Assembly (NCBI GenBank): GCA_963745025.1
Contig: CAVUWD010000005.1
Location: forward strand, 1-64,000
From: an uncultured delta proteobacterium
Lineage (GTDB): Bacteria > Desulfobacterota > Binatia > JACPRU01
Direction of reading: 5' to 3'
DNA: 64,000 bases
The notes below the pieces were generated by a model. The model saw only the letters and a list, made by a program, of their open reading frames with translations, did no database searches and was not told the origin of the DNA. This document shows positions 9,357-38,780 of the stretch, piece after piece (the stretch's first letter is position 1; every line of letters starts with the position of its first letter). A program made the translations under genes and the position numbers.

Positions 9357-9362
9357 GCTCGT

Positions 9363-18900: not shown

Positions 18901-18981
18901 GTTGCGTCGCTCGGGCTCGCTCCAAGCCCCGCCAATTGCTTGCGCTCGACCTGCCGGTGAATGAGACTGAGTGAATCAACG

Positions 18982-19332
18982 ATGGCGAAGCTGACCGTCT
19001 ATCACAATCCCGGCTGAGGGCAGTCGCGCGGCGCGGTGGAGATCCTTCGCAGCCGCGGCATCGAGTTCGATGCCATCGAGTATCTGAAGCGGCCGCTCGA
19101 TCGAGCGGGGCTCGAGCGTATCCTCGGCATGCTCGAAGCGGTTCCGGCCGCGCTGGTGCGGAAGGACAAGCGCTTCACCGAGCTCGGGCTCAACGCCGAG
19201 GACTACGTCACGGTGGAGTCTGTGATTACGCTCCTGCTCGAGCATCCGGAGCTGATGCAGCGGCCGATCGTGATCCGTGGCGAGCGCGCGATCATCGCTC
19301 GCCCGGGCGAGCGCGTGCTCGAGCTGCTGTAA
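18982..19332 (+). CDS. arsC: ArsC/Spx-family reductase, predicted selenoprotein (in-frame TGA 19015-19017)
   Basis: MAKLTVYHNPG-U-GQSRGAVEIL..IEYLK..HPELMQRPIV; TGA sits at the catalytic Cys of HNPxCxxSR. Confidence 0.85.
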
Positions 19333-19334
19333 CA

Positions 19335-19420
19335 GGCCCTCGGCTTTCGGCCTTCAGCTGTCAGCAAAGGCTCCGCGGTGGCTTTGCCGAAGAGCGGCGG
19401 CCCCGACTGCCGAGAGCTGA
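19335..19420. repeat. Heptamer-unit palindrome, variant units
   Basis: GGCCCTC GGCTTTC GGCCTTC AGCTGTC AGCAAAGGC..GGCTTTGCC..GAGAGCTGA. Confidence 0.65.
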
Positions 19421-19421
19421 T

Positions 19422-20441
19422 TCAAAGGAACGCCGGCCCGCGCTCGCGCAGCGTCACGTCGAGCATCGTCCGGATCGTCTCGCGGAGCTCTTCCGTGAGG
19501 GCGTCCACGAGCACGGGGTCGGAAGCCTCCCCGGCGGAATACCGTCCGGCGAGCTGTATCGGGTCGCCGAAGCGGATCGCCCACTTGCTCGGCAACGGCA
19601 AGAGACCGAGAAGGCCGAGCCAGGGAAACGTGGGCGTCAACGGGAAATAGGGAAGGCCGAGTCGCTTCGCAGGCCACTGCCAGGTGCCGAGCAGCGGATG
19701 GATCTCCTCCGCGCCGACGATTGCCGTCGGCACGATCGGTGCTCCCGTGCGAAGCGCCGACGCGACGAAGCCGCCGCGCCCGAAGCGCTGCAACTGGTAA
19801 CGCTTCCGGAAGCTCTTCTTCATTCCCCGCGCCCCCTCCGGGAACGCGCCGACCAGCTCTCCTCGCCGGAGCAGCCGCTCGGCATTCTCGGGGCAAGCGC
19901 GCACGCCGCCGACCCGGGTCATCAACGAGGCGAGAAAGGGTGCGTGGAAAACGAAATCGTCGACCAGCGGTCGCAGCTCACGCGCCGCGGGATGGTCCAG
20001 CCGCAACGCCATCTTCAGCATCGTGCCGTCGTAGGGGAACATCGTTCCCGAGTGGTTGGCGACGAGCAGCGCGGGCCCTTCGGCGGGGACCTTCTCGATG
20101 CCGTGCGCCTCGACGCGCCACCAGTAGCGATAGAGGAACACGAAGAGCGGCTCGACCATCTCCTCGAACTCGAGATCGAGGCCGAACTCGTCGACTCGCT
20201 CCGATCCGCGGATACGCTCGAAGCGGTCGAGCAACGTGGCGAGATCCGGCAGGCCGAGCCGAACGAGCCAGCGGTCGACGACGCCGGATGTGGCGCGCGC
20301 CGTGTCGCTGCCGCGGATCGCCTCCTCGAGCGCTTGGTCGAGGCTCGCGAGCTCGGCCTGGAACTTGTCGACGGCTCGCGCCGCCTCGGCGGCGCCCCGC
20401 ACTTTCTCGGCAGCGCGCACGCGCCGCTTTGCCTGCCGCAT
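19422..20441 (-). CDS. Lysophospholipid acyltransferase family protein
   Basis: VDEFG, LVANHSG..D, FPEG, FGRGGF, PIVPTAIVGAEE. Confidence 0.9.
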   Translation of the reverse strand: MRQAKRRVRAAEKVRGAAEAARAVDKFQAELASLDQALEEAIRGSDTARATSGVVDRWLVRLGLPDLATLLDRFERIRGSERVDEFGLDLEFEEMVEPLFVFLYRYWWRVEAHGIEKVPAEGPALLVANHSGTMFPYDGTMLKMALRLDHPAARELRPLVDDFVFHAPFLASLMTRVGGVRACPENAERLLRRGELVGAFPEGARGMKKSFRKRYQLQRFGRGGFVASALRTGAPIVPTAIVGAEEIHPLLGTWQWPAKRLGLPYFPLTPTFPWLGLLGLLPLPSKWAIRFGDPIQLAGRYSAGEASDPVLVDALTEELRETIRTMLDVTLRERGPAFL

Positions 20442-20527
20442 TCGGGCGATTGCTAAGAGAAACGCCGCAGCGGGTCAACTGCGAAACGAATTTGACTCCT
20501 CGAGCGTCGTCGCGTAGCGTCCGCGCG

Positions 20528-21478
20528 GTGCCGTTTCACCCGGTTCTCGATCGTCGCTTGCTCTTCGTATCCGGCAAGGGCGGGGTCGGAAAGACGGTGA
20601 CGACCGCCGCGCTCGCGCTGTTCGCGTTTCGCCGGCGCAAGCGAGTCCTCGTCGTCGAGCTCTCGCCGTATGGGCGGCTCCGCGAGCTGCTCGGCGGCCC
20701 GGAGCCCTCGCCGGAGCCGGCGGAGATCCAGCCGCACCTCGAGCTCGTGCGCATCGAGCCACGCCGCGCCCTCGAAGACTTCCTGCAGGGCGTCCTGCCG
20801 ATTCGCGCATTCCGTCAGCGGCTCCTGCAGAGCCGTTCGTTCTCGATTCTCGCCGCGGCGGCGCCCGGCATCGAGGAGTTCCTGGCGCTGGCGAAGATCG
20901 CCGAGTTCGAGGCGATGCGCATCCGCCTCCGACGACGCCCGCGATACGATCTCGTGATCGTCGATGCACCCGCGACCGGGCACTCGCTCGCCCTGCTGTC
21001 GACGGCCAAGACGCTGATGGAGATGCTGCCGATTGGTCCGATCGGAAAGACTGCGGAGGAAGTGAATCGGCTGCTCGTCGATTCCCGCCGCACGGCAGCG
21101 GTGATTGTGACGATTCCCGAGGAGATGGCGGTCAACGAGACGATCGAGATCAGCTCGGGCTTGAGCCGGAGCGGCGCGCTCACGGTCGGTCCGGTGATCG
21201 CCAACGCGGTCTGGCCCGATCGGTTCACCGCCGACGAGGCGCGCTGGTTGATGTCGAGCGCGCTCGACGGAAGCGACGCGCTCGTCGCGGCGGGCCGATA
21301 TCACGTGGAGAAGCGGCGGCGGGCCGAGGAACAGCTCGCGCGACTGCGCACGGAGCTCCGGGTGGAGCCCGTCGAGCTTCCGTTCGTGGTCAACGCGACA
21401 CTCGATCGTCCGCACTTGCGGCGGCTGGTGGCCGCGCTCGACACCGCGTATCCGCCCCCCGGAGTCCCCGATGCATAG
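20528..21478 (+). CDS. ArsA/Get3-family ATPase (Rv3679-like)
   Basis: SGKGGVGKT, APGIEE, IVDAPATGH, PEEMAVNET; start inferred at GTG 20528. Confidence 0.85.
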   Translation: MPFHPVLDRRLLFVSGKGGVGKTVTTAALALFAFRRRKRVLVVELSPYGRLRELLGGPEPSPEPAEIQPHLELVRIEPRRALEDFLQGVLPIRAFRQRLLQSRSFSILAAAAPGIEEFLALAKIAEFEAMRIRLRRRPRYDLVIVDAPATGHSLALLSTAKTLMEMLPIGPIGKTAEEVNRLLVDSRRTAAVIVTIPEEMAVNETIEISSGLSRSGALTVGPVIANAVWPDRFTADEARWLMSSALDGSDALVAAGRYHVEKRRRAEEQLARLRTELRVEPVELPFVVNATLDRPHLRRLVAALDTAYPPPGVPDA

Positions 21479-22616: not shown

Positions 22617-22622
22617 CGAAGG

Positions 22623-23000
22623 CTAGGCGGAGCGCGCCACGGACCCCGCCGGAGGCTTCGGCTTCGCCTTCGGTCGAGCCGATCGCTTCGCGGTCTTCGG
22701 TTGCTGCTGCGCGAGAACGCGGTCGAGCTTGATGTTCAGGTTCACGAGGCTGCCCTGCAGCGCCTCGACTTTGGTCGCCAGCTTCTTGTAATCCGCCTTC
22801 GAAGGCAGGCTGAGGAGGCTCAAGATCGTTTGCATGTTGCGGTCCACCGTTCCCTTCGTTGACATCGCCTGCTGGAACGTCTTGCCGAAGATGTCGGCGA
22901 AGCGCGGGCTCGACATCACGTCTTCGAATACTCGGTTCAGCTGCTCCTCCCCCAGCTCGCGGATGCGTTGGAAGAGGTTGCGATCGTCATGACTCGCCAT
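22623..23000 (-). CDS. Phasin/PhaE-like coiled-coil protein
   Basis: LSLPSKADYKKLATKVEAL resembles the NLPSRxD granule-protein motif; basic C-terminal tail. Confidence 0.55.
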   Translation of the reverse strand: MASHDDRNLFQRIRELGEEQLNRVFEDVMSSPRFADIFGKTFQQAMSTKGTVDRNMQTILSLLSLPSKADYKKLATKVEALQGSLVNLNIKLDRVLAQQQPKTAKRSARPKAKPKPPAGSVARSA

Positions 23001-23050
23001 TGTGTGACTGGACCTTTCGCGGCAAGGTAGCGTGCAAGTATACGCCGCCC

Positions 23051-23302
23051 ATGCCCGATCTCAAGACCTTCCTCGGGGTTCTCTCGGGACTCGCGTTCCT
23101 ACAGCCGGAGATCCCGCTCCAACCGCTCGTCGGCACCATGTTCGTCGTCAACGTCTGCGATGCGATCATGTGCCGGCTCTTCGCCCGCAACAACGGCTAC
23201 CCGAAGAATCTCTGGACGGCGATCGGATTCGTGTTCGGCATCTGGGCCGTCGCGGCGCTGATCGTCATGCCGAAGCGGGGGAAGCGGTCCGCCGCCTCAT
23301 GA
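23051..23302 (+). CDS. Small membrane protein
   Basis: Two to three hydrophobic segments; ATGA-coupled to acpS. Confidence 0.7.
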   Translation: MPDLKTFLGVLSGLAFLQPEIPLQPLVGTMFVVNVCDAIMCRLFARNNGYPKNLWTAIGFVFGIWAVAALIVMPKRGKRSAAS

Positions 23303-23682: not shown

Positions 23683-23740
23683 GGCGCACGTTCTCGCCGC
23701 CGGCTGCCGCAGCCTACCGAGCTAGCTCCGCGGCGATCGT

Positions 23741-24394
23741 TCACGCGATCGCGCGGAGGCTCGCGACGATCTCCGCGGGCTCGAGCCGCTTCGTGTAGTC
23801 GGCGTCGACGTACGCGAGACGAATCGTGCCGTCACGGGCGACGACGAAGGTGCCCGGCACCGGCAGCTCCCACGACTCGTCGGCGTTATACTTCGCGAGG
23901 TCGATGCCGAAGTTTTTCATCGCCGATCGCACCGCGTCTCCGACGCGGAACACGAGCCCGAAGCGGCGCGCGACCTGATTGCCGACGTCGCTCAGCACCT
24001 CGAACTCGAGCTTGTCCTTGTCGAGGGTGGAGAGCGAGGAGTCAGGCGTTTGCGGCGAGATTGCGACTAACGAGGCTCCGAGGGAACGGATCTCCGGGAG
24101 CGTCTCTTGGTAGGCCTGCAACTGCAGGTTGCAGTACGGTCACCAGACGCCGCGGTAGAAGGCAATGACCGCCGGGCCGCGCGCGAGCAGCGAGGCGAGC
24201 GCGACGGGCTCACCCGAGGCATTGGGAAGCTGAAAGTCGGGGGCGCGGTCGCCGAGCGTCACGCTCTCCCGGCCGACGCCGGACGTCACCATGTCCTCGA
24301 TCCCTTTGACGAGCGTGCCGACGACCTCTTTCGGAAGCTTCGGGAAGAAATCCCTCTGGAACGCCTCGATTCGCCGCCTGAGTTCCGGAATCAT
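23741..24394 (-). CDS. AhpC/TSA peroxiredoxin-like protein, predicted selenoprotein (UxxC; TGA 24140-24142)
   Basis: Two in-frame ORF-track halves join as APDFQLP..FYRGVW-U-PYCNLQLQAYQ..LVAISPQ..LSDVGN..LPVPGTFV; strong SD. Confidence 0.9.
24115..24128 (-). promoter_or_regulatory. Candidate bacterial SECIS hairpin
   Basis: CCUGC-AGUU-GCAGG begins after an 11-nt spacer following UGA. Confidence 0.65.
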
Positions 24395-24411
24395 TCGGGT
24401 TCCTCCTTCCT

Positions 24412-24474
24412 GGCTATGGGCTTCGGGCTACGGGCAAAGGCTTCGCGCCGCCTTTCCTGTAGCCCGTAGCCTGT
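24412..24474. repeat. Heptamer-unit palindromic intergenic element
   Basis: GGCTATG GGCTTCG GGCTACG GGCAAAGGC..GCCTTTCC TGTAGCC CGTAGCC. Confidence 0.8.
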
Positions 24475-24483
24475 ATGCCGGCT

Positions 24484-26217
24484 TCAGCAAGCTCCGCAGG
24501 TCTCGCACGTCGAGACGTCGCAGGGCGGCGTCTCTCGCTCGCGGAGCGCCTTCTCGCGCTCGGTCCAGAGATAGAGCTTGCGCACTCGATGGTCGATGAA
24601 GTCCCAGGGGAGGGTCTCCTCGTGGTCGTACGAACGGTGCACGAACCAGTCGGGATCGACAAGCCCCTCGCTCGCCCGCTTACCCCCCCGCCCGCGCTGG
24701 AGCGCCTGCCACCAGCTCTCCCCCTGCCGCGCGCTGCGGTGAAGCTCGACGATCCAGCGCGCCACGCGGCGATCCCCGCGCGAGAGCAGCGTCTGCAGGT
24801 ATGCCTCGCGCGGCGACTCTCCGTCGACCTCCACGTTGGCGACCGGGCGCAGCCGCTCGCGCAGCCGACCGACCTTGGCCTTGGCGGTCGCGACCTCGAC
24901 CATCGGGTCCCATTGAAACGGCGTCCACGGCTTCGGCACGAAGGGGTTGACCGAGAGCGTGATCGCGCCGATGCGCCCGCGCTCCTTCCCTTTGCCGAGA
25001 AAGCGCTCGCGGATGCCGAGCGTCAGGTCGACGATCGCGTCGACGTCGGCGTCGGTCTCGGTCGGCAGCCCCACCATGAAGTAGAGCTTGAGATCCTGGA
25101 CGCCCTCGCCGACGAGCATCTCCGCGGCGCGGAGGATCTCCGGCTCCTTCAGGTTCTTGTTGATGACCCGGCGCATGCGCTCGCGAGCCGGCTTCCGGCG
25201 CGATCGTCACCGTGCGGTTGCCGACTGCGGCCGAGCGCCGCAGCGAGCGCGGGCGAGATGCAGTCGGCCTTGAGCGACGCGGGAGAGGCCCGGCCGCCGT
25301 GATCGGCGATGGTCCTGGCAGAGATCCGCGACGCCGGGAAGGCTCGCCATCTCGGCGCCGACGAGACCGATCGTCGAGCGCGACGTCGAGGCCGCGGACG
25401 ACGTCCGCTCTCAGGCTCGCGACCGAGCGGGTGCGCAGCGGCCGGTACATGAAGCCGGCCGCGCAGAACCGGCAGCCCCACTCGCAGCCGCGGCTCGCCT
25501 CGACGAGGAACATGTCGCCGAAGCAACGTCCTCGGTGAGAATCTCGCGAGGTGGTCGGAACGCGATCGAGATCGGCGACGAGACGGCGCTCCACGCGCGC
25601 CTTCCGTGGCCGGCGACGAGCCTCGGACCGTCGTAGCGCGGTCGGTGGAGCCGCGGCACGTAGGCCCCCGCGGTCGCCGGCGCTTCTTCGAGGATCTCGT
25701 CGCGCGACCAGCCCCGTTCGCGGGCGTCCTCGAGGAATGCGAGGAACTCGGGGAGCATCTCCTCGGCCTCGCCGATCAGGAACACGTCGACGAATTCGGC
25801 GATCGGCTCGGGATTCAGGAAGATCGCCGAGCCGCCGGCGATCACCAACGGATGGCGCTCGTCGCGCTCTTCGGCGGAGAGCGGCAGACCCGCGCCCTCG
25901 AGCATCGCCGGGACGTTCAGATAATCGGTCTCGAACGAGATCGAGAGCGCAAAGACGTCGAGCTCTCCGGCGGGCCGGCGGCTTTCCAGCGTGACGAGAC
26001 GCATGCCCCCTTCCGGTAGAAACGCGCGCTCGCAGTAATGACCGGGGGTCGTCGCGAGTATCCGGTAGACCGCCTGGAAGCCGAGGTTGCCCATGCCGAG
26101 CGCATAACGGTTCGGGTAGGCGAGGCAGATGCCCGTGCGCCCTCCGCGCGCTGGCGTGAACAGCGTTCGCTCCCGGGAGAGGAGCTCGCGCGCGTGGGAT
26201 TCTTCGGACCAGGACAT
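24484..26217 (-). pseudogene. B12-binding radical SAM protein, split by several frameshifts (possibly sequencing errors)
   Basis: YPNRYALGMGNLG, SFETD, EASRGCEWGCRFC, TIAPEAGS, LKLYFMVGLPTET, FVPKPWTPFQW distributed over three frames. Confidence 0.8.
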
Positions 26218-26222
26218 AACAC

Positions 26223-26302
26223 GCTACCGGCCACAGGCTACAGGCTTCAGGCAAAGACTCAAAGGCGTCCCTCCCGTGGCCGGAAACCCGTAGCCTGTAG
26301 CC
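26223..26302. repeat. Heptamer-unit palindromic intergenic element
   Basis: GGCCACA GGCTACA GGCTTCA GGCAAAGAC..CGTAGCC TGTAGCC. Confidence 0.8.
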
Positions 26303-26303
26303 T

Positions 26304-26768
26304 TCACTTCGTCTTCGGCCGCGGCGTGAGGTCGAGGTCGGGCGGCGCCTGCGCCGGGACTTTCCAGCGCAGAAACGGCTTGTCGTAGCTCTCGTGGTAG
26401 GCGTTTGCCTCCTCGATCGACTCCTTGAACTCTTCGTTGAACTCCTCGAGATCTTCCCTCTCGAGCGCGGCCATCACCGGCGTGACCCGCTTTTCGATGA
26501 ACTTGCGGAGGTCCCTCTCGTACTTGGGGCGGGTGAGCGCTCCGAGCTCCATCAGTTTCTTGGCCTCCTTCAGCTGGAACTTGGCGAGCGGCCAGTTCTT
26601 CGCTTGCGCCGCGTAGTAGAGCTTCCAGAAACGGTTGCCGATCTCGGGCATGAGCCGCGCGAGCCCGGGCTGCATCACCGCGAGGTCCTCGCCGGTGAGC
26701 TTGCGGCCCTGCGCATTGTCGAACTCGACCTTTCGAACGCGGTCCGCGAAGTCCTTCTCCTCGGGCAT
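26304..26768 (-). CDS. Helical hypothetical protein, cytochrome c-like homolog lacking CxxCH
   Basis: PGLARLM..KLYYA..NWPLAKFQL..ANAYH..PFLRWKVP; host-like codon usage. Confidence 0.65.
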   Translation of the reverse strand: MPEEKDFADRVRKVEFDNAQGRKLTGEDLAVMQPGLARLMPEIGNRFWKLYYAAQAKNWPLAKFQLKEAKKLMELGALTRPKYERDLRKFIEKRVTPVMAALEREDLEEFNEEFKESIEEANAYHESYDKPFLRWKVPAQAPPDLDLTPRPKTK

Positions 26769-26835
26769 CGGCGTCTCTCTCTACGGTTTGGCGGAGCCCC
26801 GGTGGGTAGCTCACAGGGGAGGAGTTTACAAGCGA

Positions 26836-26916
26836 GGCTACGGGCCACAGGCTGCGGGCTACAGGCAAGGACTTCGCGTTGCCTTGTCCGTAGCCTGAGG
26901 CCCGTAGCCCGCAGTC
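26836..26916. repeat. Heptamer-unit palindromic intergenic element
   Basis: GGCTACG GGCCACA GGCTGCG GGCTACA GGCAAGGAC..CGTAGCC TGAGGCC CGTAGCC. Confidence 0.8.
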
Positions 26917-26996
26917 CTCCGATTGTCCCCCCCAACGCGCGTCGCCTCGGGGCGCGCTTTTAAAAGCCGGACGGGCAAGCTAACAACGGAGGCACC

Positions 26997-28179
26997 ATGA
27001 CCACCTCACTCGACTACTACGACATCGAGAGCCAGCTCTCGGCCGACGAACGGATGGTGCGCGACACGGCGCGCAAGTTCGTCGAGGAGGAGTATCTGCC
27101 GATCGTCCGCGCGGCGTTTCGCGACGGGTATTTTCCGAAGCAAGTGATTCCTCGCATCGCCGCGCTCGGCTTTCTCGGCGCGAATCTGCCCGAGCGAGTA
27201 CGGTTGCGCCGGTCTCAACAACGTCGCCTACGGGCTCATCAACCAGGAGCTCGAGCGCGGCGACTCGGGGCTGCGCTCGTTCGTGAGCGTGCAGTCGTCG
27301 CTCGTCATGTATCCGATCTACGCGTTCGGATCGGAGGCGCAGAAGAGCCACTGGCTTGCGAAGCTCGCCTCGGCCGCGCGCGATCGGCTGCTTCGGTCTG
27401 ACCGAGCCCGATTACGGCTCGAATCCGGGCGGGATGCGGACGCGCGCCGTGCGCGACCGCCGGCGGCTTCGGATCTACGGGCACCAAGCGCTGGATCACC
27501 AACGGCTCGATCGCCGACGTGGCGCTGGTGTGGGCGAAGACCGAGGGGGATGACGCGAAGTCGATCCGCGGCTTCCTCGTCGAGCGCGGCACCCCGGGCT
27601 TCAGCGCTGCCGCGAGATGCAGGGCAAGTTCATCGCTCCGCGCCTCGGTCACCTCCGAGCTGATCCTCGAGGACTGCGTCGTCCCCGAGGAGAACGTCCT
27701 GCCCGGGAGCAGGGGGCTCAAGTCACCGCTCATGTGTCTCACGCAGGCGCGCTACGGGATCACCTGGGGGGCGATCGGTGCGGCGATCGCGTGCTACGAG
27801 TGCGCGCTCGATTACGCGAAGACGCCGCATGGTCTTCTCGCGGCCGATCGCCGGCTACCAACTCGTGCAGGCGAAGCTCGTCACCATGGTCGCCGAGATC
27901 ACCAAGGCGCAGCTTCTCTGCCTGCGCCTCGGGCGCTTGAAGGACGACGGCAAGATGCGTCCCGAGCAGGTCAGCCTGGCGAAGATGAACAACGTCTCGC
28001 AGGCGCTGCGCATCGCGCGCCTGGCGCGCGACATCCTCGGCGCCAACGGCATCACCGACGAGTACCCGGTGATCCGCCACATGCTGAACCTCGAGACCGT
28101 CAACACCTACGAGGGGACGGAGGACGTGCACCGGCTCACCATCGGGCGTGACGTCACCGGGCTCAATGCCTTCGAGTAG
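26997..28179 (+). pseudogene. Glutaryl-CoA-dehydrogenase-like acyl-CoA dehydrogenase, frameshifted (possibly sequencing errors)
   Basis: [55 protein letters not shown] in successive frames. Confidence 0.85.
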
Positions 28180-28237
28180 CGAAGAGCGATCGTATCCTCC
28201 GGGCGAACGCCTCCAAACGAGCCTGTCGCGATCGGCG

Positions 28238-28444
28238 ATGCGCCACGTACGGCGCGTGATCGTCGCCGTGATCGGCGTGACGGTGCTCGCAATCGGCGTC
28301 GCGATGATCCTTCTGCCCGGTCCCGCGACCGTGGTGATCCCGCTCGGCCTCGGCATCCTCGCCATCGAGTTCGCGTGGGCCGCGCGCATGCTGAAACGAT
28401 TGAAGGACCAAGCGAATCGGGTGTTCGGGCGGAGGTCGCCATGA
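28238..28444 (+). CDS. PGPGW-domain small membrane protein
   Basis: IGVAMILLPGPATVVIPLGLGILAIEFAWA. Confidence 0.8.
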   Translation: MRHVRRVIVAVIGVTVLAIGVAMILLPGPATVVIPLGLGILAIEFAWAARMLKRLKDQANRVFGRRSP

Positions 28445-28507
28445 TCTCCAGGGCCCCCGATTGCCTTGCCAGCGAGCGATGCGCTTGAAAGATCGCGCGC
28501 CGTGAGC

Positions 28508-29005
28508 GTGCCCTCGAAGGAAGAGATCGAGCGATTCGTCTCGACGTTTCTCTACTCGCGCGAGGCGTTCCTCGTCGACGACGTGCTGCACGTCGACCGC
28601 GAAGGGCGAGAGATCGAAGCGAGGATGGACACTACGCGGCTCTTACCCGTCGGCCGCTTTCAGGTGGGCGATTTGCGCGTGCACCCGCGGCACGTCTCGG
28701 CGCCCGACCTCCTGCTTCTCACCGGCAACCTCGGCTGCTTGCACGCGTACTTCCTGCACGGCTGCCGCTGGGACGAGGGCTGGGTCGGCTTCGGCAATCG
28801 GATCCATCGGGCGGACTTCCGCAGGCTCGTGACGATCGGTCCGCCGCTACGGCTGCAGTCCAAGGAGACGCGCGTGCGCGAAGGGCCGAAGCGAGTCGTG
28901 CTGCGCTACGAGTTCCGCTTCTGGCAGGACGGCGAGCTCGCCTACTTCGGTGACCAGTCGGCGATGTTCGTAAAGGGCCGAACGCTCGGCGCCGACGAAG
29001 GCTAG
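28508..29005 (+). CDS. Hotdog-fold (FabZ-like) protein
   Basis: FLVDDV, IHRADFRRLVTIG and beta-strand C-terminus; start uncertain. Confidence 0.6.
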   Translation: MPSKEEIERFVSTFLYSREAFLVDDVLHVDREGREIEARMDTTRLLPVGRFQVGDLRVHPRHVSAPDLLLLTGNLGCLHAYFLHGCRWDEGWVGFGNRIHRADFRRLVTIGPPLRLQSKETRVREGPKRVVLRYEFRFWQDGELAYFGDQSAMFVKGRTLGADEG

Positions 29006-29133
29006 CTCCGCAGGATGCTTCGGTCGAAGATGGTTCGCGAGCAACGGGAGCGATTTGTGACGCAGTCTCCTCGGCGAACCTCGCCGAGACCCACGTGAGC
29101 AGTCGCCGCCACAGCTCTTTTGGGTGAGTTGAC

Positions 29134-29214
29134 GGCTACCGGTTGCCGGCCGCCTGCTACCGGTAGAGACTCAGCGCGCATTTTGCGCTAACCGGTAGTC
29201 GGTAGCCGGCAACC
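29134..29214. repeat. Heptamer-unit palindromic intergenic element
   Basis: GGCTACC GGTTGCC GGCCGCC TGCTACC GGTAGAGAC..GGTAGTC GGTAGCC GGCAACC. Confidence 0.75.
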
Positions 29215-29231
29215 CGGACCAGGAGGCTTGC

Positions 29232-29837
29232 ATGAAGCTCTATTATGCACCGAGAACCCGCGCGACTCGCGCCCGCTGGATGCTCGAAGAGATCGGCGCC
29301 CCCTACGAGCTCGTGCGCATCGATCTGTCGAAGGGTGAGCAGAAGAAGGCGGACTACCTGAAGATCCACCCGCACGGCGCCGTGCCCGCGTTCTCCGACG
29401 CGGACGTGACGATTTTCGAGTCGGCGGCGATCTGCGCCTATCTCGCCGACAAGTTTCCGGAGAAGCAACTGGCGCCACCGTTCGGCAGCGCGGCACGCGG
29501 GCCGTACTACCAGTGGCTCGTCTACTCGATGGCTACGGCCGAGCCGCCCGCCGTCAAGGTGTTTCTCAATACGGTGATGCTGCCCGAGGCCGAGCGCTCC
29601 GCGGCCGCGGCCGAAGAGGGGCGTGCGCAGTGGGCCGAGGTGGCTCGCGTGCTCGAGCGAGCGATCGACGGCAAGAGCTTTCTTCTCGGCGACCAGTTCA
29701 CGGCCGCCGACGTGATGATCGGCTCGATCGCCGGTTGGGCGGGGTTCATGGGCCTTCTCGAGGGCTTCTCCGAGCTTCAGAAGTACGTCACTCGGCTCAC
29801 GAGCCGTCCGGCATATCGACGAGCGATCGCGGACTGA
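29232..29837 (+). CDS. Glutathione S-transferase family protein
   Basis: HPHGAVP, IFESAAICAYLAD, FTAADV; SD AGGAGG. Confidence 0.93.
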   Translation: MKLYYAPRTRATRARWMLEEIGAPYELVRIDLSKGEQKKADYLKIHPHGAVPAFSDADVTIFESAAICAYLADKFPEKQLAPPFGSAARGPYYQWLVYSMATAEPPAVKVFLNTVMLPEAERSAAAAEEGRAQWAEVARVLERAIDGKSFLLGDQFTAADVMIGSIAGWAGFMGLLEGFSELQKYVTRLTSRPAYRRAIAD

Positions 29838-29990
29838 CGAGAAGCCCGATCGCGCTTGACCTGGCGCGGAGTTTAGTTATTCGCAAGCGCCGACCGGCGC
29901 GCCTCGGCGTGATTCTGCGGCGCGGATTACACGGTTGTCGAATCATTCACGAATCGTACCGAGTCAACACCGAACGAGGAGGACGGAACC

Positions 29991-31042
29991 ATGAAACCAA
30001 CGCTTGTCACCGGCGCCAACGGCCACGTCGGCAACAACATCTGCCGCTTGCTCGTGGAGCGCGGCGAGCCGGTCCGCGCGATGATCCGGCCGTCCGCCGA
30101 TCCGCGGCCGCTCGAGACGCTCGACGTCGAGATCGTCCGCGGTGACATTCTCGATCCCGCTTCGACCGCGGCCGCGGTCGCGGGGGCGGGTCGCGTGTAT
30201 CACACCGCCGCGGGGTTTCTGATGTGGTCGAAGGATCCCGAGCGCGACATCATCCGTCCGAGCGTCGAAGGCACCCGCAACGTGCTCGAGGCCGCGGTGA
30301 AGGCCGGCGTCGAGAAGGTCGTGTACACGAGCACGACGGGCACGATGGGCTTCGCCGCCACCCCGGATCGGGTGATCGACGAGAGCCATTTCAACGAGCA
30401 TCCGCACACGCACTACGTGCGCGGCAAGATCGCCGCCGAGAAGGAGGCGTTCGCGATCGCCGCGCGCACGGGCTTGCCGCTGTGCGCGATGAACCCCGGC
30501 TTGATCCTCGGCCCGCGATTCTGGAAGGTCTCGCGAGTCGGTCAAGCAGGTCGCCGACTTCCTCAATCGGGGCGCGCCGCTCTACTTCGACGGCGGGTTC
30601 GGCGTCGTCGACGTCGAGGACGTCGCGCGCGGCTCGCTCGCTCGCGATGGAGAAGGGCCGGAGCGGCGAGCGCTACATCCTCTCGGGCGAGAACCTGACC
30701 GTGAAGCAGCTCTTCGACATCCTCGCCGAGCTCACCGGGCCTCGCGGCGCCGACGATCAAGGCGCCCGTCTCTGTGGTGCGCGTGCTCGCCGCCGCTCAT
30801 GGAATTCGCCGCCAAGCTGACCGGGATCGCGGCCGATGCTCGACCGCAGCCAGGTGGACGAGTTCGCCGGCAAGTACGGCTACTTCGACTGCGCGAAGGC
30901 GAAGCGAGAGCTCGGTTACACCTATCTCTCGGCGCGCGATACGCTGCGCCGCACGGTCGCCTGGCTGGTCGACAACGGTTTCGTCACCGAGCGGCGCCGC
31001 CAGGCGATGAAGTTGGATCCGTCCGTAGCGAACGCGTATTGA
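29991..31042 (+). pseudogene. NAD-dependent epimerase/dihydroflavonol-reductase-like SDR, frameshifted (possibly sequencing errors)
   Basis: VTGANGHVG, YTSTT, YVRGK, NPG; continuation VVDVEDVARG, GERYILSG, KAKRELGY in other frames. Confidence 0.8.
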
Positions 31043-31113
31043 GGGGCGAAGAACATCCTCGAGCCTTTCATCAGCGGCACCGAGTCTTGTAAGGATTTTC
31101 GCAGGAGGACGCC

Positions 31114-31443
31114 ATGTACAAGCTCGTCGCCCTTTGGTCCGCCCCGAAGCCGGGAGACGTCGAAGCATTCGAGTCCTACTACCGAGAAGTTCACGTGCCC
31201 AAAGCAACCGTGGTGCCGGGATTGAAGCGGATCGCCCTGACCCGCATCGACTCGGGTCTCGAGGGCGGAGCCGCGCCTTTCTATCGCGTCGCCGAGCTGT
31301 TTTTCGAAAGCCCGGAGGCGATGGAGAAGAGCGGACACTCCGACCTCTGGCAGGCGATGCGCCAGGACGCCGGCCAGATGATCGAACGCTTCGGCGTGAC
31401 GCTCACGGTCGGCATGGGGTGGGAAGAAGAGACCAAGCGGTAG
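31114..31443 (+). CDS. EthD family protein
   Basis: AFESYYREVHVP..PGL..VAELFFES. Confidence 0.85.
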   Translation: MYKLVALWSAPKPGDVEAFESYYREVHVPKATVVPGLKRIALTRIDSGLEGGAAPFYRVAELFFESPEAMEKSGHSDLWQAMRQDAGQMIERFGVTLTVGMGWEEETKR

Positions 31444-31453
31444 AGATCACCGC

Positions 31454-32239
31454 TCAGGGATACGTGCCGGCCACGCTCTCCGGCAGGACGTCGTCCGAGC
31501 TGACGTAGCCCGGTGGCTTGCCGGTCGTGGATTCGACGGCGAGAAAGCCGGGTAGAACACGGATCACGTGGATGCGCGTGCCGGGGGCGAGATAGGTGAC
31601 GACGGGAGCGGTCTCGCTCGGCGACTGGAAGAGGGGTGAACGGTAGCGCACCCGATACCAGCCGGGGCGGTGCCGCCGCGCAGGCTCCACCGCGGGTTCG
31701 GAAGGCGTCTTCCGCGCAGGCGTCGCCGGAGCTTCCTCGTATGCCGGTGCGGGCTCGTGAGATGCGGGCGGAATCGTCGGCTTCGCGGCCGCGACTTCCG
31801 AAGGCGCGTTCGCAGGCGGCGTTGCGCGGGCTTCCTCGTGAGCCGGCACGACCTCGGGTGATGGAGCCGGGAGCGTCGGCTTCGCCGACGTGAACTCGGC
31901 CCGTTGCTCGGCGGGCGACGGCGCCGGGGTCGCCTCCGCTTGCGGCTCGCCGGGAACGGGGAGCGTGCCCGCTCGGTGCCGTTGGTAGGCAACCAACCCA
32001 GCGACGAGAAGCAGAATGGCGGCGAAGATGGCGGCGAGTCCGCGGCCGCGACGGCGCGACGGCGACTGCGGCATCTCGCCGGGAGTCGGCTTCCGGCTCT
32101 CGACCTCGCTCGCGGTCGCGCTTCGCTTGGCCCCGCCACGGGCCTGGACGAGGATCGCGCCGCACTCGCGGCAGAACTGGGCGTCCGCGGGATTGGGGTT
32201 CCCGCACGAGGGACAGAGTCGTGCCGTTTCCTCCGTCAC
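31454..32239 (-). CDS. Zinc-ribbon, transmembrane, Pro-rich linker, SH3-like protein
   Basis: CPSCG..FCRECG, one TM helix, C-terminal PLFQSPS..GTRIHV..GYVS. Confidence 0.7.
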   Translation of the reverse strand: MTEETARLCPSCGNPNPADAQFCRECGAILVQARGGAKRSATASEVESRKPTPGEMPQSPSRRRGRGLAAIFAAILLLVAGLVAYQRHRAGTLPVPGEPQAEATPAPSPAEQRAEFTSAKPTLPAPSPEVVPAHEEARATPPANAPSEVAAAKPTIPPASHEPAPAYEEAPATPARKTPSEPAVEPARRHRPGWYRVRYRSPLFQSPSETAPVVTYLAPGTRIHVIRVLPGFLAVESTTGKPPGYVSSDDVLPESVAGTYP

Positions 32240-33363
32240 CGTTTGCTTCTCCTGACGCCGAGTATCGTGGTCCGAAGCTCGCTCACTTCTTCGCTACCGA
32301 GTAGCTCGGCGAGCGGCTCGAGTCGATCCTCTGAAAGCGCCCGAGCCTCGACGGGCGCCGCGACGGCGAGGCTCGCGACGATGCGGTCGCCGATTTGCGA
32401 CAGCGTGGGGCGAAGCTCAGTTTCGAGATCGAGGGTGGCCTCGGTCTCGCTCGCGCGGCGCTCGATCGCCTTGGCGAGCGCGATCTGGATCGCAAAGAGC
32501 GCGCGGACCGAATCGGGCTCCAGGCCGGCCGCGCGTGCGGCGCCTTCGGCCCGAGCCAAGACGGCCTGTTCACGCTCGGGATCCTCGACCGCGAGCCCGT
32601 GGGCGCGCTTCCAGGCCGCGACCGCGGGCATCAGCGCGAGCCGGCGCGCGGCGAGGTCGATCAGGTTGTCGACCTCGTCGCGTGGCGACGCTCCGCCGAG
32701 CCAGCGACGGCGCAGCTCCTCGAGGCGCCTCTCGTTGGCGGCGAGCCAGGCGTCGATGCGGGGGCCGAGCGCGCTCGCGCGTTGGGGCGCGATCCAGTAT
32801 ACCTTGCGGTCGCGAGGCGGCTCGCAGCGGACCGCGTCGTCGGTCCGACGCGGCCGGCTCGCCGCTTCGAAGGAGTCGGTGACGAAGGCGCTCACGGCGC
32901 CGCCCTCGAGGAGCGTCGGCAGCGAGAGATTGTCGTCGACCGCAACGAGCGATTGTGGCGCGAATCGTCGGCGCGCCCAGCTCTCGAGCACCCCGCCCCG
33001 ATTCACCGCGACTAGGCCGGCGGTCGGGTCGCCGACGACGCAAGGGCCACCCTGGGCGACGGCTCGGCTCATCCAGCCGATGACCGCTCGCTCCGGCCGC
33101 CAGGTGATGCCGCTCATCGCGACGTCGAACACGTTGGCGCGAGCGTTGCCGCGGAGCTCCGGCCAGCGGAAGCGAACCCACTCGATGCGCATGCCGAAGT
33201 CGCGCGCCATGGCCTCGACGGCGTCGACGTCGAAGCCCCGGCCGCGGAGCGAGAATGGCGTATAGTCATCGCTCGTCCCGACCCGCAGCACCGGTTCGGC
33301 GGCGACGACCGATCGGGCGAGCACGAGACCGACGAGAGTGGCCAGCGCCAGCGTGCTTGCCAT
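32236..33363 (-). CDS. Exported cyclohexadienyl dehydratase/SBP3-chorismate mutase (AroQ gamma) fusion
   Basis: Signal peptide; LRVGTSDDYTPFS, FDVAMSGIT, VNRGG; C-terminal RRLALMPAVAAWK..VEDPEREQAVL..QIALAKAIE..LRP. Confidence 0.8.
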   Translation of the reverse strand: MASTLALATLVGLVLARSVVAAEPVLRVGTSDDYTPFSLRGRGFDVDAVEAMARDFGMRIEWVRFRWPELRGNARANVFDVAMSGITWRPERAVIGWMSRAVAQGGPCVVGDPTAGLVAVNRGGVLESWARRRFAPQSLVAVDDNLSLPTLLEGGAVSAFVTDSFEAASRPRRTDDAVRCEPPRDRKVYWIAPQRASALGPRIDAWLAANERRLEELRRRWLGGASPRDEVDNLIDLAARRLALMPAVAAWKRAHGLAVEDPEREQAVLARAEGAARAAGLEPDSVRALFAIQIALAKAIERRASETEATLDLETELRPTLSQIGDRIVASLAVAAPVEARALSEDRLEPLAELLGSEEVSELRTTILGVRRSKR

Positions 33364-33418
33364 CGATGACGTTCTCCCATAGTCCGATGACGGCGCGACC
33401 TGGCAGGAGGATCGAACC

Positions 33419-34012
33419 GTGACGCGTCTTCGCATCGACTCCATTTCAGAAGCCATGAGCCATGCTGCGGAGCTCACCGCCGCGAGAGGGATCCAGTGGG
33501 CCGACGCCTATGCGCAGTTCCCCAGTCAGATGGGCCGACTGCTGGTCACGCGGGCGAGCTACGGTGGGCCCTTTCTCGAGCTCTTCCAAAAGATCATGTG
33601 GGATCCCGGGCCGCTGACGCGCCAAGAGCGCGAAATGATCGCCATGGTCGCCTCGCGCGCCAGTCGCTGCAAGTATTGAACGGAAATTCACGGAGAGTTT
33701 CTCCGCTTCGAAAACACCGATCCCGCGCTCGTCAAGCAGATCAAGACGGATTTCCGTTCGGCACCGATCGAGCCCCGCCACCGAGCGCTTCTCGAATACG
33801 CCGAGAAGCTCACGCTCACGCCCCACAAGATGGTCGACGGCGACGTCGACCTCCTCCGCCGCAGCGGCTGGAGCGAGGACGCGATCGTCGCCGCCACGCA
33901 CGTCGTCGGCATCTTCAACTACCTGGTGCGCCTCGCGGACGCGTTCGGGATCGAGTGGGAGCCCGAGGTCGAGGCCTCCGCCACGCATCAGCCGGAGCTC
34001 TGGAAGGACTAG
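33419..34012 (+). CDS. AhpD/CMD-like peroxidase, predicted selenoprotein (CxxU; TGA 33677-33679)
   Basis: SD AGGAGG; LTRQEREMIAMVASRASRCKY-U-TEIHGEFL..ALLEYAEKLT..FNYLVRLADAFG in one frame. Confidence 0.9.
33691..33705 (+). promoter_or_regulatory. Candidate bacterial SECIS hairpin
   Basis: CGGAGA-GUU-UCUCCG begins after an 11-nt spacer following UGA. Confidence 0.7.
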
Positions 34013-34099
34013 GCGCGCCATCAGATTGCCGCGAATCCTCCGTCCGTTCTCACCGCGGGGTTGCATCGCGCGTGCGGAACTGGCGATACGGTGAGGCGC

Positions 34100-35221: not shown

Positions 35222-35245
35222 CGGCGGTCCGGATCGAGCGGACGG

Positions 35246-36604
35246 CTAGGCGGACGCTAGTTTCGGCAGCCGCTCGAGCGAGGCGGCGATCGCCGCGGCG
35301 GGATGCTGGTAGTCCTCGAGCTCGCCGCGGAAGTACTGGTCGTAGGCCGCCATGTCGAAGTGGCCGTGCCCCGAGAGGTTGAAGAAGAGGACGCGCGGCT
35401 CGCCGCGCTGCTTGCACTCGAGCGCCTCGTCGATCACGGCGCGGATCGCGTGACTCGCCTCTGGCGCCGGCACGATGCCCTCGGTGCGAGCGAAGGTCAC
35501 GCCGGCCTCGAAGGTCGCGAGCTGCGGCACGGCCTGCGCCTCGACGAGGCCTTCGCGGACGAGCTGTGAGACGAGCGGCGAGTCGCCGTGATAGCGGAGG
35601 CCTCCCGCGTGGATCCGCGGCGGTACGAAGTCGTGACCGAGCGTGTACATGAGCAGGAGCGGCGTGAGGCCCGCGGTGTCCCCGAAGTCGTAGGCGTAGT
35701 GTCCGCGGGTGAGCGTGGGGCACGACGTCGGCTCGACGGCGACGAGGCGGATGCGACGGCCGGCGGCCTTGTCGGCGAAGAAGGGAAACGCGACGCCGCC
35801 GAAATTCGAGCCGCCGCCGCAGCAGGCGAAGACGGCGTCGGGATACTCGCCAAGCGTCTCGAACTGCTTTTTCGCTTCCAAGCCGATCACGGTCTGGTGG
35901 AGCAGCACGTGGTTGAGGACCGATCCGAGGGCGTAGTTCGTGTCCTTCCGCGACGCAGCTTCCTCGACCGCCTCGGAGATGGCGATCCCGAGCGAGCCCG
36001 GCGAATCCACGTCGCCCGCCAGGATCTTCTTGCCCGACTCCGTATTGCGGCTCGGGCTGGCGATGACCTCGGCGCCCCAGGTCTCCATCAGCGAGCGGCG
36101 GAAGGGCTTCTGCTCGTAGCTGACGCGCACCATGTAGACCCGCACGGAGATGCCGAAGAGCTGTCCGGCGAGCGCGAGCGCCGAGCCCCATTGGCCCGCG
36201 CCGGTTTCGGTGGCGAGCCGATGAATGCCGGCTTCGGCGTTGTAGAAGGCCTGCGCCACGGCGGTGTTCGGCTTGTGCGACCCTGCCGGGCTCACGCCCT
36301 CGTACTTGTAGTAGATGCGCGCCGGCGTTCCGAGCGCGGCTTCGAGCCGGTGGGCGCGAAAGAGCGGACTCGGACGCCAGAGCCGGTAGGCCTCACGCAC
36401 CGATTCGGGGATGGAGATCCAACGCTCGCGCGAGACCTCTTGCTCGATGAGCGCCGTGGGAAAGATCGCCGCAAGTGCCTCGGGGCCGATGCGCTTGCCG
36501 TCGGGGCCGAGCGGCGGGGCGGGAGGATTCGGCATGTCCGCGACGACGTTGTACCACTGGCGCGGGATCTCGGATTCGTCGAGAAGGACTTTCGTTTGCG
36601 GCAC
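35246..36604 (-). CDS. trpB2: Tryptophan synthase beta chain type 2
   Basis: [53 protein letters not shown]. Confidence 0.96.
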
Positions 36605-36635
36605 GAGGCCTCCCGGGGAGCGTTCTACGCCTGGT

Positions 36636-38159
36636 CTACGCTCGAACCGCCGCGGGCTTCGTCCCTTCGCCCATCCGCGAATCGAGCGGGGTCGCGAAGG
36701 ACGCGTCCGTCCCGCCCCACTCGCCCAGATGAGCGCACCGCCGCGTGAACTCCAACAGGGGCTTGACGTCGAACTCCCGGACCATCGTCAGCTTCTGCGT
36801 CTCCAGGGATCCCTCGGCGTGAATGGATAAGATCTCGTGGTAGCCGCCGATCTCGGAAGCCATCATGTCCCGGATCAGGTTCATGAGGCGCAGCCGGTCG
36901 CGCGTCGGGACGCCTTTCTTCCCTCCCAGGTACTTCTCGATGTCGCGGGCCGTTTCGGGATTCGCAAGGTCTTCCTCGGCCGGCCCCGTCACCAGCAGGC
37001 CGCCGGCGATGTCCTGCACGTTGCGCACCATGACGTGATAGTTCTCCGCGAAGTGGAACTTGGCGGCGTTCGAGAGCACGGGGTCCGGCACCGCGATGCC
37101 GCCATCCAGCGTGCGGTGCTGGATAGCCGACATCTTGGTGAGCCCCAGCACCGCCTCCCGGTAGTTGATGAGGCGAGCGAGCTTCTCCCGCACGTGGTTC
37201 GCCTTGGTGATCCCGTTGTAGTCGGCCATGAGCATCGCGGCACCCACCATCAGGTCGATCCAGGGCAGCTTGTAGGACGCGGCGGTGAACCGGTGGAACT
37301 GGACGAAGGTGTTGGCGATGGCCCCTGCGTACTGCCACTCTCCGTCCAGAAACACGCGCTCCCAGGGGACGAAGACGTCGTCGAAGATGGTGAGGGTGTC
37401 CACGATCTTGTGGCGCGCGCCGATGGGGTGGTGGAACTCCGACGGTGCGGCCTCGCTGAATGGGCTCATAATCATCCGCAGGCCCTTGACGTTGGCCGGC
37501 ACGGCGAAGGCCACGGCGTAGTCCCGATCCTCCTCGCCCAGAGCGCGTGTGGGCAGTACGGCGATCTCATTGGCCAGGATCGAGCCGGTGGTATGGGCCT
37601 TGGCCCCCCGCACCACGATGCCATCCTTGTTTCGGGAGACCACCCGCACGTAGTAATCCGGGTGCGCCTGCTCCGTGGGGCCGAGGGAGCGATCCCCCTT
37701 CACGTCGGTCTGGGCCACGGCCATGGCCACATCCCGTTCCTGGCAAGAGGCGTGGTAGCGCTCCAGGCGGGGAAGATAGTCCGCCTTGCCCTTGGCGGCC
37801 ATGTGGGTGGCCACGGCGCGCATCGCGAAGAGGAAGTCCGTGCCGATCTCTTTGATCAGAAGGACCACGCCGTGCCCCGCCCGGGTGCTGGCCTCGATGC
37901 ACTCGCGGCGACGGAGCAGATCGTCGCCGTTTCGGGGGATCTTGAAGTAGCGGCTGTGCCGCACCCCCTGTTCGTCGACGTAGGTCAGCAGATCCCGCTG
38001 CTCGGGCTCCTCGGCGATGCGGTAGTCCGCCGCCACGTGGTCGACGGCCCGGCGCGTCACCGGATGCTCGGTGACATCCTTTACCCGCTCGCCCTTATAG
38101 TAGACGACTCGCCCATCGCGCAGACTGTCCACGAACTCCTTCGGTGATTTCAATCCCAT
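36636..38159 (-). CDS. HpaB/4-hydroxybutyryl-CoA dehydratase family flavoprotein
   Basis: [52 protein letters not shown]. Confidence 0.88.
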
Positions 38160-38224
38160 GGCTCGCTCCTTCTCACGGCGTTCGGTCCTTGACCGTTAGT
38201 CCTCAGTCTAGGGATGAGGACGCA

Positions 38225-38240
38225 GGGCAACGCGTTGCCC
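38225..38240. promoter_or_regulatory. Perfect 16-bp palindrome, possible operator
   Basis: GGGCAACGCGTTGCCC, 65 nt upstream of the HpaB-family gene. Confidence 0.35.
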
Positions 38241-38315
38241 CCTCGGTCTCATTGCTGTTGCCTCATACCTCGTTCCTCATCCCTGGGCTAATGGTTAGGT
38301 CAGCTAGCCAGCGTT

Positions 38316-38346
38316 TATCGCTTCCGCTATCCGACGTTTCGAGAAG
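38316..38346 (+). repeat. 31-bp direct repeat, second copy at 39567-39597
   Basis: TATCGCTTCCGCTATCCGACGTTTCGAGAAG identical at both sites. Confidence 0.9.
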
Positions 38347-38689
38347 ATCATGTGGGACCCCGGACCGTTGGCGCGGGCGGAGCGCGAGATGATCGCCATG
38401 GTCGCCTCGCGCGCCAGCCGCTGCAGGTATTGAACGGAGATCCAAGGAGAGTTTCTCCGCACCGATCCGGCGCTCGCCAAGCAGATCAAGAGTGATTTTC
38501 GCTCGGCGCCGATCGAACCCCGCCACCGCGCGCTTCTGGAATACGCAGAGAAGCTCACGCTGACCCCCTACAAGATTGTCGACGAGGACCTCGACCGTCT
38601 CCGCGACAGCGGCTGGAGCGAGGATGCGATCGTCGCCGCCACGCACGTCATCGGCATCTTCAATTACCTGGTGCGTCTCGCGGACGCGT
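38338..38689 (+). pseudogene. Truncated paralog of the AhpD-like selenoprotein (TGA 38431-38433 retained)
   Basis: FEKIMWDPGPLARAEREMIAMVASRASRCRY-U-TEIQGEFLR..FNYLVRLADA; both termini lost, 9-bp deletion, His to Gln. Confidence 0.85.
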
Positions 38690-38780
38690 CCCGCTCGGTG
38701 TCTGCCCGAATCGCCGCCCGTTTTGCCGCTTCGCCCATGCCCCCGTTTTCTGGCAGAAAGCGGGGCGAGGGCAAGAGTGG

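Follow-up and report, generated by a model that had tools for sequence, protein, structure and literature searches.

The DNA studied here is a stretch of 64,000 nucleotides (referred to as the window), corresponding to positions 1-64000 of contig C5 in the genome of an uncultured delta proteobacterium. The genome is a metagenome-assembled bin of 5.65 Mb in 20 contigs, with a G+C content of 65.9%, a completeness of 92.65% and a contamination of 7.6%. The window contains an ArsC-like, a Prx-like and an AhpD-like gene that are each interrupted by an in-frame TGA, while a fourth TGA lies in part of a second AhpD-like gene (Table 1). Very probably, the products of the three intact genes are selenoproteins that belong to known families of thiol oxidoreductases, the TGA being read as selenocysteine (Sec, U) by canonical machinery and with an ordinary selenocysteine insertion sequence (SECIS), and the fourth TGA lies in an AhpD-like remnant. 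The initial annotation of this DNA had placed four in-frame TGAs at redox Cys positions with homology continuing on both sides; the positions proved to be exact and one Pfam domain runs across each of the four, the fourth lying in a fragment.

For each query gene 60 genomes were searched for relatives (genomes are labelled G001, G055 and so on, the present one being G000). Pfam scans were made with TGA read as U, and NCBIfam/TIGR and Rfam profiles were also used. Hairpin positions are counted from the U of UGA, hairpin energies were calculated with RNAfold and consensus folds with RNAalifold.

Table 1. Predicted features of the window and related features on other contigs (contig given where it is not C5).
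Feature	Location	Strand	Details
ArsC-like selenoprotein gene, glutaredoxin-type arsenate reductase family, 116 amino acids	18982..19332	+	Sec codon 19015-19017
Predicted SECIS region, ArsC-like	19027..19057	+	G+C-rich hairpin, positions 13-43, apical loop AGAU
Prx-like thiol:disulfide oxidoreductase selenoprotein gene, 217 amino acids + stop	23741..24394	-	Sec codon 24142-24140
SECIS, Prx-like	24115..24134	-	Two mutually exclusive hairpins
AhpD-like (TIGR01926 peroxidase-related) selenoprotein gene, 197 amino acids	33419..34012	+	Sec codon 33677-33679
SECIS, AhpD-like	33691..33705	+	6 bp + loop GUU (= 5 bp CGGAG-AGUUU-CUCCG), loop G at position 21
Internal fragment of a second, diverged AhpD-like selenoprotein gene	~38338..38696	+	TGA 38431-38433, hairpin 38446-38458
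selA-selB-selD cluster	C20:20315-25012	-	Three genes adjacent
PrdB/GrdB-like selenoprotein paralogue	C12:13770-18326
PrdB/GrdB-like selenoprotein paralogue	C12:101828-102718
PrdB/GrdB-like selenoprotein paralogue	C14:137393-138663
PrdB/GrdB-like selenoprotein paralogue	C16:1089489-1090088
PrdB/GrdB-like selenoprotein paralogue	C17:10313-11146

In the ArsC-like gene the TGA is codon 12, which gives U12 in the context YHNPGUGQSR (motif UxxS). The Pfam ArsC model (PF03960) matched residues 7-114 with 49 bits (cut-off 24), and residues 1-116 aligned one to one with residues 1-116 of the solved E. coli R773-type arsenate reductases 1I9D and 1JZW, which are Cys forms. In this alignment U12 falls on Cys12 of HNPaCGtSR, so that U replaces Cys12 in the present gene, and R60, R94 and R107 are aligned to Arg in the 1JZW chain. 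Three Arg residues are catalytic in R773 ArsC. Among the 26 matches with at least 50% identity in other genomes, 15 had the TGA and 11 were without it.

The Prx-like protein has U85 in the context FYRGVWUPYC, where WUPYC represents a UxxC motif. Residues 48-192 matched AhpC-TSA (PF00578) with 104.8 bits (cut-off 26) and Redoxin was matched with 63.5 bits; no NCBIfam model was matched at its cut-off, the protein passing only the Pfam family cut-off. All ten orthologues at 52-76% identity contained one TGA. A Cys homologue with 40% identity (in G057) reads WCPYC, which indicated that U takes the place of the first Cys of a CxxC motif, and a search of genome contigs with the protein gave only Cys homologues, which are common across many phyla. 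When the protein was compared with the solved Bcp 2CX3, U was placed on a Ser three residues before the aligned Cys (FSPVC in 2CX3 versus WUPYC here). We take this aligned Cys to be the peroxidatic one, and a typical Prx presumably has Thr (TxxC) at the position of U. If these assignments hold, the Prx-like protein would likely perform disulfide exchange and not peroxide reduction, given that U would then lie at the position of the Thr in TxxC.

In the AhpD-like protein U87 is found in SRCKYUTEIH, in which CKYU represents a CxxU motif. The CMD domain (PF02627) covered residues 52-94 with 38.3 bits, TIGR01926 was matched with 121.1 bits and thus above its cut-off of 81.8, and in an alignment to the solved AhpD 6K40 U fell on the second Cys of CVYC. 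Four genomes of the same family (at 89, 78, 64 and 48% identity) have kept the TGA, as have many others of the class. Ten further matches were listed at 42% identity or more (own gene and fragment excluded), all with one TGA except for one Cys form (in G055). The AhpD-like selenoprotein family was originally described in a study of the Sargasso Sea metagenome (Zhang, Fomenko, Gladyshev 2005, PMC1088965). The present gene has the same CxxU motif as the TIGR01926 family, with U at the second Cys and a SECIS directly downstream, and nothing essential was found to differ.

Pairs of Sec and Cys homologues are the classic basis of selenoprotein prediction, and such pairs were found for the predicted ArsC-like, Prx-like and AhpD-like selenoproteins. 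Judging from these alignments, Sec almost certainly replaces a redox-active Cys in each of the three proteins. All three families were said in the initial annotation to include known selenoproteins, in agreement with the table of selenoprotein families in the 2026 review PMC13188914, where arsenate reductase (TIGR00014, UxxS), AhpD-like (TIGR01926, CxxU) and Prx-like (PF00578, UxxC) proteins are listed. The Prx-like selenoproteins listed there share the AhpC-TSA domain with the present protein, and U likewise represents the N-terminal Cys of CxxC.

The sequences immediately 3' of the TGAs were examined for hairpins. In the AhpD-like gene the hairpin has an energy of -7.8 kcal/mol and its loop begins at position 21, which gives a spacing of 17 nt. 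In an alignment of 12 sequences covering 48 nt from the UGA, the stem was formed by columns 13-20 and 24-31 around a GUU loop, and it comprises 8 bp in the relatives and 6 bp in the present gene, of which a truncated second copy lies 4.7 kb away. In this register 91.7% of the stem cells were paired, compared to 20.8-74.0% when the partner was slid by 1-3 columns. Pair 17-27 covaries over the 12 rows (CG in 6, GC in 5 and UG in 1), the swap between GC and CG being compensatory and changing the codons from Gly/GGA with Leu/CUC to Ala/GCA with Leu/CUG. The hairpin was not found in the AhpD-like Cys orthologue in G055.

Two mutually exclusive hairpins can be drawn for the Prx-like gene. Hairpin A consists of 5 bp (CCUGC-AGUU-GCAGG, positions 15-28, 24128-24115 in the window) and has an energy of -7.9 kcal/mol; its 4-nt loop begins at position 20, giving a spacing of 16 nt. 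Hairpin B consists of 7 bp with the loop CUGCA (positions 9-27, 24134-24116), has an energy of -9.7 kcal/mol and was the one chosen by RNAalifold. Only the 5-bp form agrees with the published rules for spacing and for a G in the loop; the loop CUGCA of the 7-bp form fails the loop-G rule. Columns 13-29, among them four synonymous sites and a UUG codon that is rare for Leu, were identical in 11/11 genomes, and in columns 9-12 of the 11 orthologues the sole changes were C to U at 9 and 12, while all four bases were seen at the flanking synonymous columns 6 and 30. In the Cys form (G057) the sequence differs and no such hairpin folds.

The ArsC-like hairpin is larger, with a multi-part stem, a 4-nt apical loop and an energy of -20.3 kcal/mol over 48 nt (RNAfold). 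Its loop begins at position 26, giving a spacing of 22 nt, and the values for spacing, loop G, loop and stem size and minimum free energy (MFE) lie within the published limits given below. Among nine Sec orthologues the RNAalifold consensus placed 7 pairs in the hairpin, of 11 predicted, and its register was ambiguous. The G at position +18 that the initial annotation had seen kept in ArsC is present as a letter, but it sits in the G+C-rich stem of this larger and different hairpin.

The two hairpins quoted in the initial annotation, those of the Prx-like and AhpD-like genes, were correct to the letter, and both stems begin 12 nt after the UGA. It had further suggested that they represent a minimal, lineage-specific SECIS. 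The distinct signal would in that case be a stem at +12 with an AGUU loop, common to the selenoprotein genes of the host and read by a co-adapted SelB. Two unrelated genes do have an identical stem offset and identical loop letters, the hairpins are very short in both cases, with 5-6 bp and about -7.8 kcal/mol, and the letters of the Prx-like hairpin are invariant in 11 genomes of the class. At that position, AGUU flanked by a stem of at least 4 bp was found at 9 of 120,891 TGAs in the genome, three of which are the Sec codons of the window and the other six of which are not in coding frames; the coincidence of the two genes thus exceeds chance.

The bacterial SECIS model of bSECISearch (Zhang and Gladyshev 2005), as it is given in PMC13188914, has an apical loop of 3-9 nt on a stem of 4-16 bp, a G at loop position 1 or 2 (mostly N1-G-[G/U]-N-N2, where N1 pairs with N2), a distance of 16-37 nt from the UGA to this loop, and an MFE of -7.5 kcal/mol or lower. 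The AGUU hairpin of the Prx-like gene and the A-GUU-U hairpin of the AhpD-like gene agree with all four of these constraints and share the position within the coding sequence and the N1-G-U-N-N2 loop, with values near the lower limits for spacing (16-17 nt), stem (5-6 bp) and MFE. Moreover, the AhpD-like stem has 8 bp in the relatives and is not minimal there, the ArsC-like gene and selD are without the AGUU form, and the other selenoprotein genes of this genome have the loops GUG, GUC, GUA, GGC, GGAC and GUU at positions 21-27. A perfect hairpin, defined as at least 5 bp closing a 3-5-nt loop that begins at position 20-27 and has G as its first or second letter, was found at 16/22 likely Sec codons, the background being 6.1% among all 120,887 TGAs and 7.0% among the 4954 Cys codons of long open reading frames (ORFs). 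A bulged U, which we take to be a feature of the minimal SECIS of E. coli fdhF, was not seen in the present hairpins. Given the fit to the general consensus and the varied loops in the genome, what the two genes have in common is a variant of the general signal and not a private one, the exact AGUU form being confined to these genes and the fragment among the selenoprotein genes found in this genome. A separate signal with its own SelB is therefore highly improbable.

The genes required for Sec insertion were found outside the window. On contig C20, selA (TIGR00474, 571.2 bits), selB (TIGR00475, 397.3 bits, model positions 2-580 of 581) and selD (TIGR00476, 385.4 bits, with one in-frame TGA) all scored above the respective cut-offs. 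A tRNA-Sec on contig C15 was matched by RF01852 with 76.5 bits (cut-off 47) and was called tRNA-SeC with the anticodon UCA (tca) by ARAGORN, and none of the other tRNAs among the 52 in the whole-genome ARAGORN run reads a stop codon. SelD itself appears to be a selenoprotein, with U in KAAGUAAKL and a hairpin with the loop GGC. Given that TGA closes 924 of 1346 long ORFs with a high G+C content at third codon positions (GC3), it is otherwise a stop codon and has not been reassigned genome-wide. The Sec reading proposed in the initial annotation was thus borne out: selA, selB, selD and a UCA tRNA are present in the genome, the TGA is kept in relatives, and of the observations it had named as refuting, those on the machinery and on relatives were not made.

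In the mechanism that we infer from these sequences, SelD would make selenophosphate and SelA would convert Ser-tRNA-Sec(UCA) to Sec-tRNA-Sec. SelB would bind the small hairpin within the coding sequence just 3' of the UGA and deliver the Sec-tRNA-Sec to that UGA only, UGA elsewhere in the genome being a stop. The insertion of Sec at the UGAs, the binding of SelB to the hairpins and the substrates of the proteins are all predictions of this kind.

UGA-to-Cys-type recoding reportedly occurs in some bacteria. Here, insertion of Cys or of some other standard amino acid at UGA, as might be brought about by a tRNA-Cys(UCA) resembling tRNA-Sec, would give a pattern indistinguishable from Sec in sequence alone, but it is very improbable, since the single UCA tRNA of the genome is a tRNA-Sec according to both Rfam and ARAGORN, the two further RF01852 matches above the cut-off are an ordinary tRNA-Leu and an ordinary tRNA-Ser, and selA and selD, which are needed only for Sec, are intact, selD even carrying a Sec codon. 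This alternative, which the initial annotation had also named, was therefore set aside in favour of Sec.

The fourth TGA is located in the context SRCRYUTEIQ, and the CMD domain (PF02627) was matched there with 29.7 bits. The match spans only residues 44-176 of the query and contains one TGA and one TAG. A DNA alignment of 33480-34060 with 38230-38780 showed homology only in the part listed in Table 1, with a 9-nt in-frame deletion. The copy has thus lost about 56 codons at the N-terminal and about 25 at the C-terminal end, and stops in the same frame were present within 12 codons upstream. Over 115 codons the synonymous divergence (dS) from the intact AhpD-like gene was 0.38 and the ratio of non-synonymous to synonymous divergence (dN/dS) 0.17, which suggests as its origin a diverged homologue that was once functional, and argues against a recent duplication. 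The initial annotation had described an AhpD paralogue that keeps the core stem; a 5-bp hairpin is indeed present, but it is weakened (-5.7 kcal/mol, which fails the MFE rule of -7.5 kcal/mol or lower) and belongs to an internal fragment instead of a whole gene.

From its sequence the fourth locus is probably a gene remnant. No counterpart of the fragment was found with the AhpD-like query in G001, a genome of the same genus that is 82% complete. The other explanation is an assembly chimera. The summed contig depth in four other metagenome runs was about 1-11 at 37436-38750 compared to mostly 5-40 elsewhere in the stretch, and none of the contig pieces listed from other runs covered 38300-38700. 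This drop in depth would fit a strain-specific rearrangement or a mis-join.

As for the three intact genes, the TGAs might be nonsense mutations or assembly errors, the genes then being broken or pseudogenes. The fourth locus is indeed truncated, with stops upstream of it and a hairpin that is weakened, another gene in the window (26.9-28.2 kb) appears frameshifted, and the bin is contaminated to 7.6%. Against this, each of the three genes has the TGA at the identical codon in at least ten independently assembled genomes, always at the redox Cys, and the TGA is followed by a conserved hairpin that was not found in the Cys forms of the AhpD-like and Prx-like genes. Contigs from other sequencing runs were also compared with the window. 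Parts of 24001-34000 were shared by 20 public runs (shares 0.05-0.40), and contigs of the three runs X1, X2 and X10, which are about 96-98% alike by the listed counts, cross the ArsC, Prx-like and AhpD sites. In the ArsC region (18976-19427), 19015-19017 was unchanged among the differences listed; as these are 40 of 679, the comparison gives weak support for the TGA at the ArsC site. Taken over the three genes, disruption by mutation or assembly error can hardly account for the TGAs.

Several observations weigh against the interpretation of the three genes as selenoprotein genes with an ordinary SECIS. With C replacing U, the ArsC-like protein scored 97.9 bits on TIGR00014, just under the equivalog cut-off of 106.05. 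It was named ArsC-like because of this shortfall; the UxxS motif is the same as in the TIGR00014 selenoproteins, and arsenate is its putative substrate. No compensatory pair was found in the ArsC-like hairpin among the nine Sec orthologues (RNAalifold). For the Prx-like gene the consensus is fitted by the 5-bp hairpin, although the 7-bp hairpin is energetically better (-9.7 kcal/mol), and the alignment did not decide between the two folds. The machinery (C20 and C15) and the window (C5) are on separate contigs, so that their origin from the same cell rests on the binning. Finally, with 40 of 679 differences listed, the comparison with contigs of other runs bears on the TGA of the ArsC-like gene and not on the other sites. 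Our interpretation nevertheless remains that of three selenoprotein genes; its machinery, its RNA signal and all three protein families are textbook knowledge in bacteria and raise no new recoding question.

The initial annotation had also regarded the loci as a gene set. Pfam annotation was made for 27 neighbouring ORFs between 12.0 and 43.8 kb and for the CoxD/CoxE pair read through at 9362-11479. The four loci are on both strands and scattered among unrelated genes, including those for GlgC, an acyltransferase, an ArsA-like ATPase, a GST, an epimerase, an EthD protein, a chorismate mutase fusion, KAS III, a PALP enzyme and HpaB, and no operon linking the four loci was seen in the annotated 12.0-43.8 kb. 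The neighbours of the ArsC-like gene are not ars genes, except for the ArsA-like ATPase 2 kb away. When 24 genes were placed at random, some 20-kb span with at least three of them occurred in 6.6% of 20,000 trials, and contig C14 holds a second such triplet of selenoprotein genes. The loci were thus not upheld as a set. The Prx-like and ArsC-like genes, 5 kb apart here, are 27-44 kb apart on one contig in G013, G037 and G053 (same class, family f7). They are widely separated on a single contig in G029 and on separate contigs in G045, and their linkage is loose at most.

Two other loci in the window deserve mention. The acyl-CoA dehydrogenase gene at 26900-28200 is broken into several short overlapping ORFs, with the C-terminal domain whole at 27778-28179, and contigs from other runs showed single-base indels in this region at 27196, 27378, 27459, 27468, 27477 and 27525; the gene either contains assembly frameshifts or is decaying. 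A TGA at 10307 was rejected as a Sec site, being the stop of a MoxR/CoxD-like AAA ATPase that is followed in frame by a CoxE-like VWA protein. Since the next gene begins at 10346, the stretch 9362-11479 represents two genes with no Sec site.

The genome was then surveyed for further selenoprotein genes by BLAST of Sec/Cys and Sec/Sec pairs within the genome, which gave 893 candidate TGAs, 52 of them with a C or U partner. A hairpin filter kept 64 of the 893, and Pfam was thereafter run on 23 loci. The pair search replaced two earlier screens, of which GC3 alone gave thousands of candidates and a strict one based on codon log-odds did not recover the AhpD gene. The genome was found to contain at least 24 full-length predicted selenoprotein genes, including the three in the window and leaving out two fragments and one candidate. 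This is a lower bound because the pair search and the hairpin filter miss genes without paralogues or with imperfect hairpins, and the bin contamination of 7.6% is a caveat on the count. Beyond the window, and with a domain that spans or ends right at the TGA, there were five more CMD/AhpD-type genes, four GRDB/PrdB-like genes (a fifth was assigned by paralogy only), three AhpC-TSA genes and two DSBA genes, and one each of ResA/TlpA-like, Glutaredoxin, SelD, Rhodanese, UGSC and C_GCAxxG_C_C.

Two loci were not counted. The first, a candidate selenoprotein gene at C10:273618-276014 on the minus strand, encodes an FG-GAP/ASPIC-UnbV protein of about 800 amino acids and was left out because no domain runs across the in-frame TGA; a 7-bp hairpin with the loop GGUC is present 3' of this TGA. 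The second, C11:302116-302436, is an AhpD-like fragment. No Rdx/SelW-like gene was found in the genome profile scan, and none of the thioredoxin (PF00085) matches in the genome had a TGA. For a Sec formate dehydrogenase, PF00384 matches with TGAs exist, and a six-frame look at them was noisy and gave no convincing Sec context.

The initial annotation had called the selenoproteome unusually large. With at least 24 genes it is indeed large compared to most bacteria, but it is below the maxima given in PMC13188914, which are at least 57 in the Olavius algarvensis Delta 1 symbiont and 63 predicted in a Methylomirabilota metagenome-assembled genome. Set against these two values, a count of 24 is large but not exceptional. 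Those two genomes likewise have many thiol-oxidoreductase selenoproteins, and the count here is smaller.

Among the five PrdB/GrdB-like paralogues (Table 1), the two that were scanned with TIGR04483 scored 149-180 bits, below the cut-off of 300, and two of the five adjoin AhpD-type or Prx selenoprotein genes. From their sequences it is possible that these paralogues constitute a selenium-dependent reductase module outside the Clostridia-type Grd/Prd systems. More tentatively, the genome may hold an expanded selenoproteome of at least 24 genes in which thiol oxidoreductases dominate, with about eight AhpD-type genes and the five PrdB/GrdB-like paralogues, and which would be rich for a bacterium if the organism is oxygen-exposed, with the pairs of PrdB-like and AhpD genes perhaps marking an undescribed selenium-dependent reductase system, a suggestion that we regard as possible and somewhat doubtful.

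Gene callers stop at TGA, and the three redox enzymes in the window and at least 21 further genes elsewhere in the genome would consequently be reported as fragments or missed. Correct calls bear on how redox and arsenic biology is reconstructed for uncultured bacteria of sediment and soil, and on estimates of their selenium demand. For specialists, the interest lies in the size and make-up of the whole selenoproteome, with its many AhpD-type and PrdB-like paralogues and no verified FdhA among the PF00384 matches examined. If the more tentative suggestion is true, this would be one of the richer selenoproteomes in a probably oxygen-exposed bacterium, counter to the published trend by which bacteria rich in selenoproteins live anaerobically.

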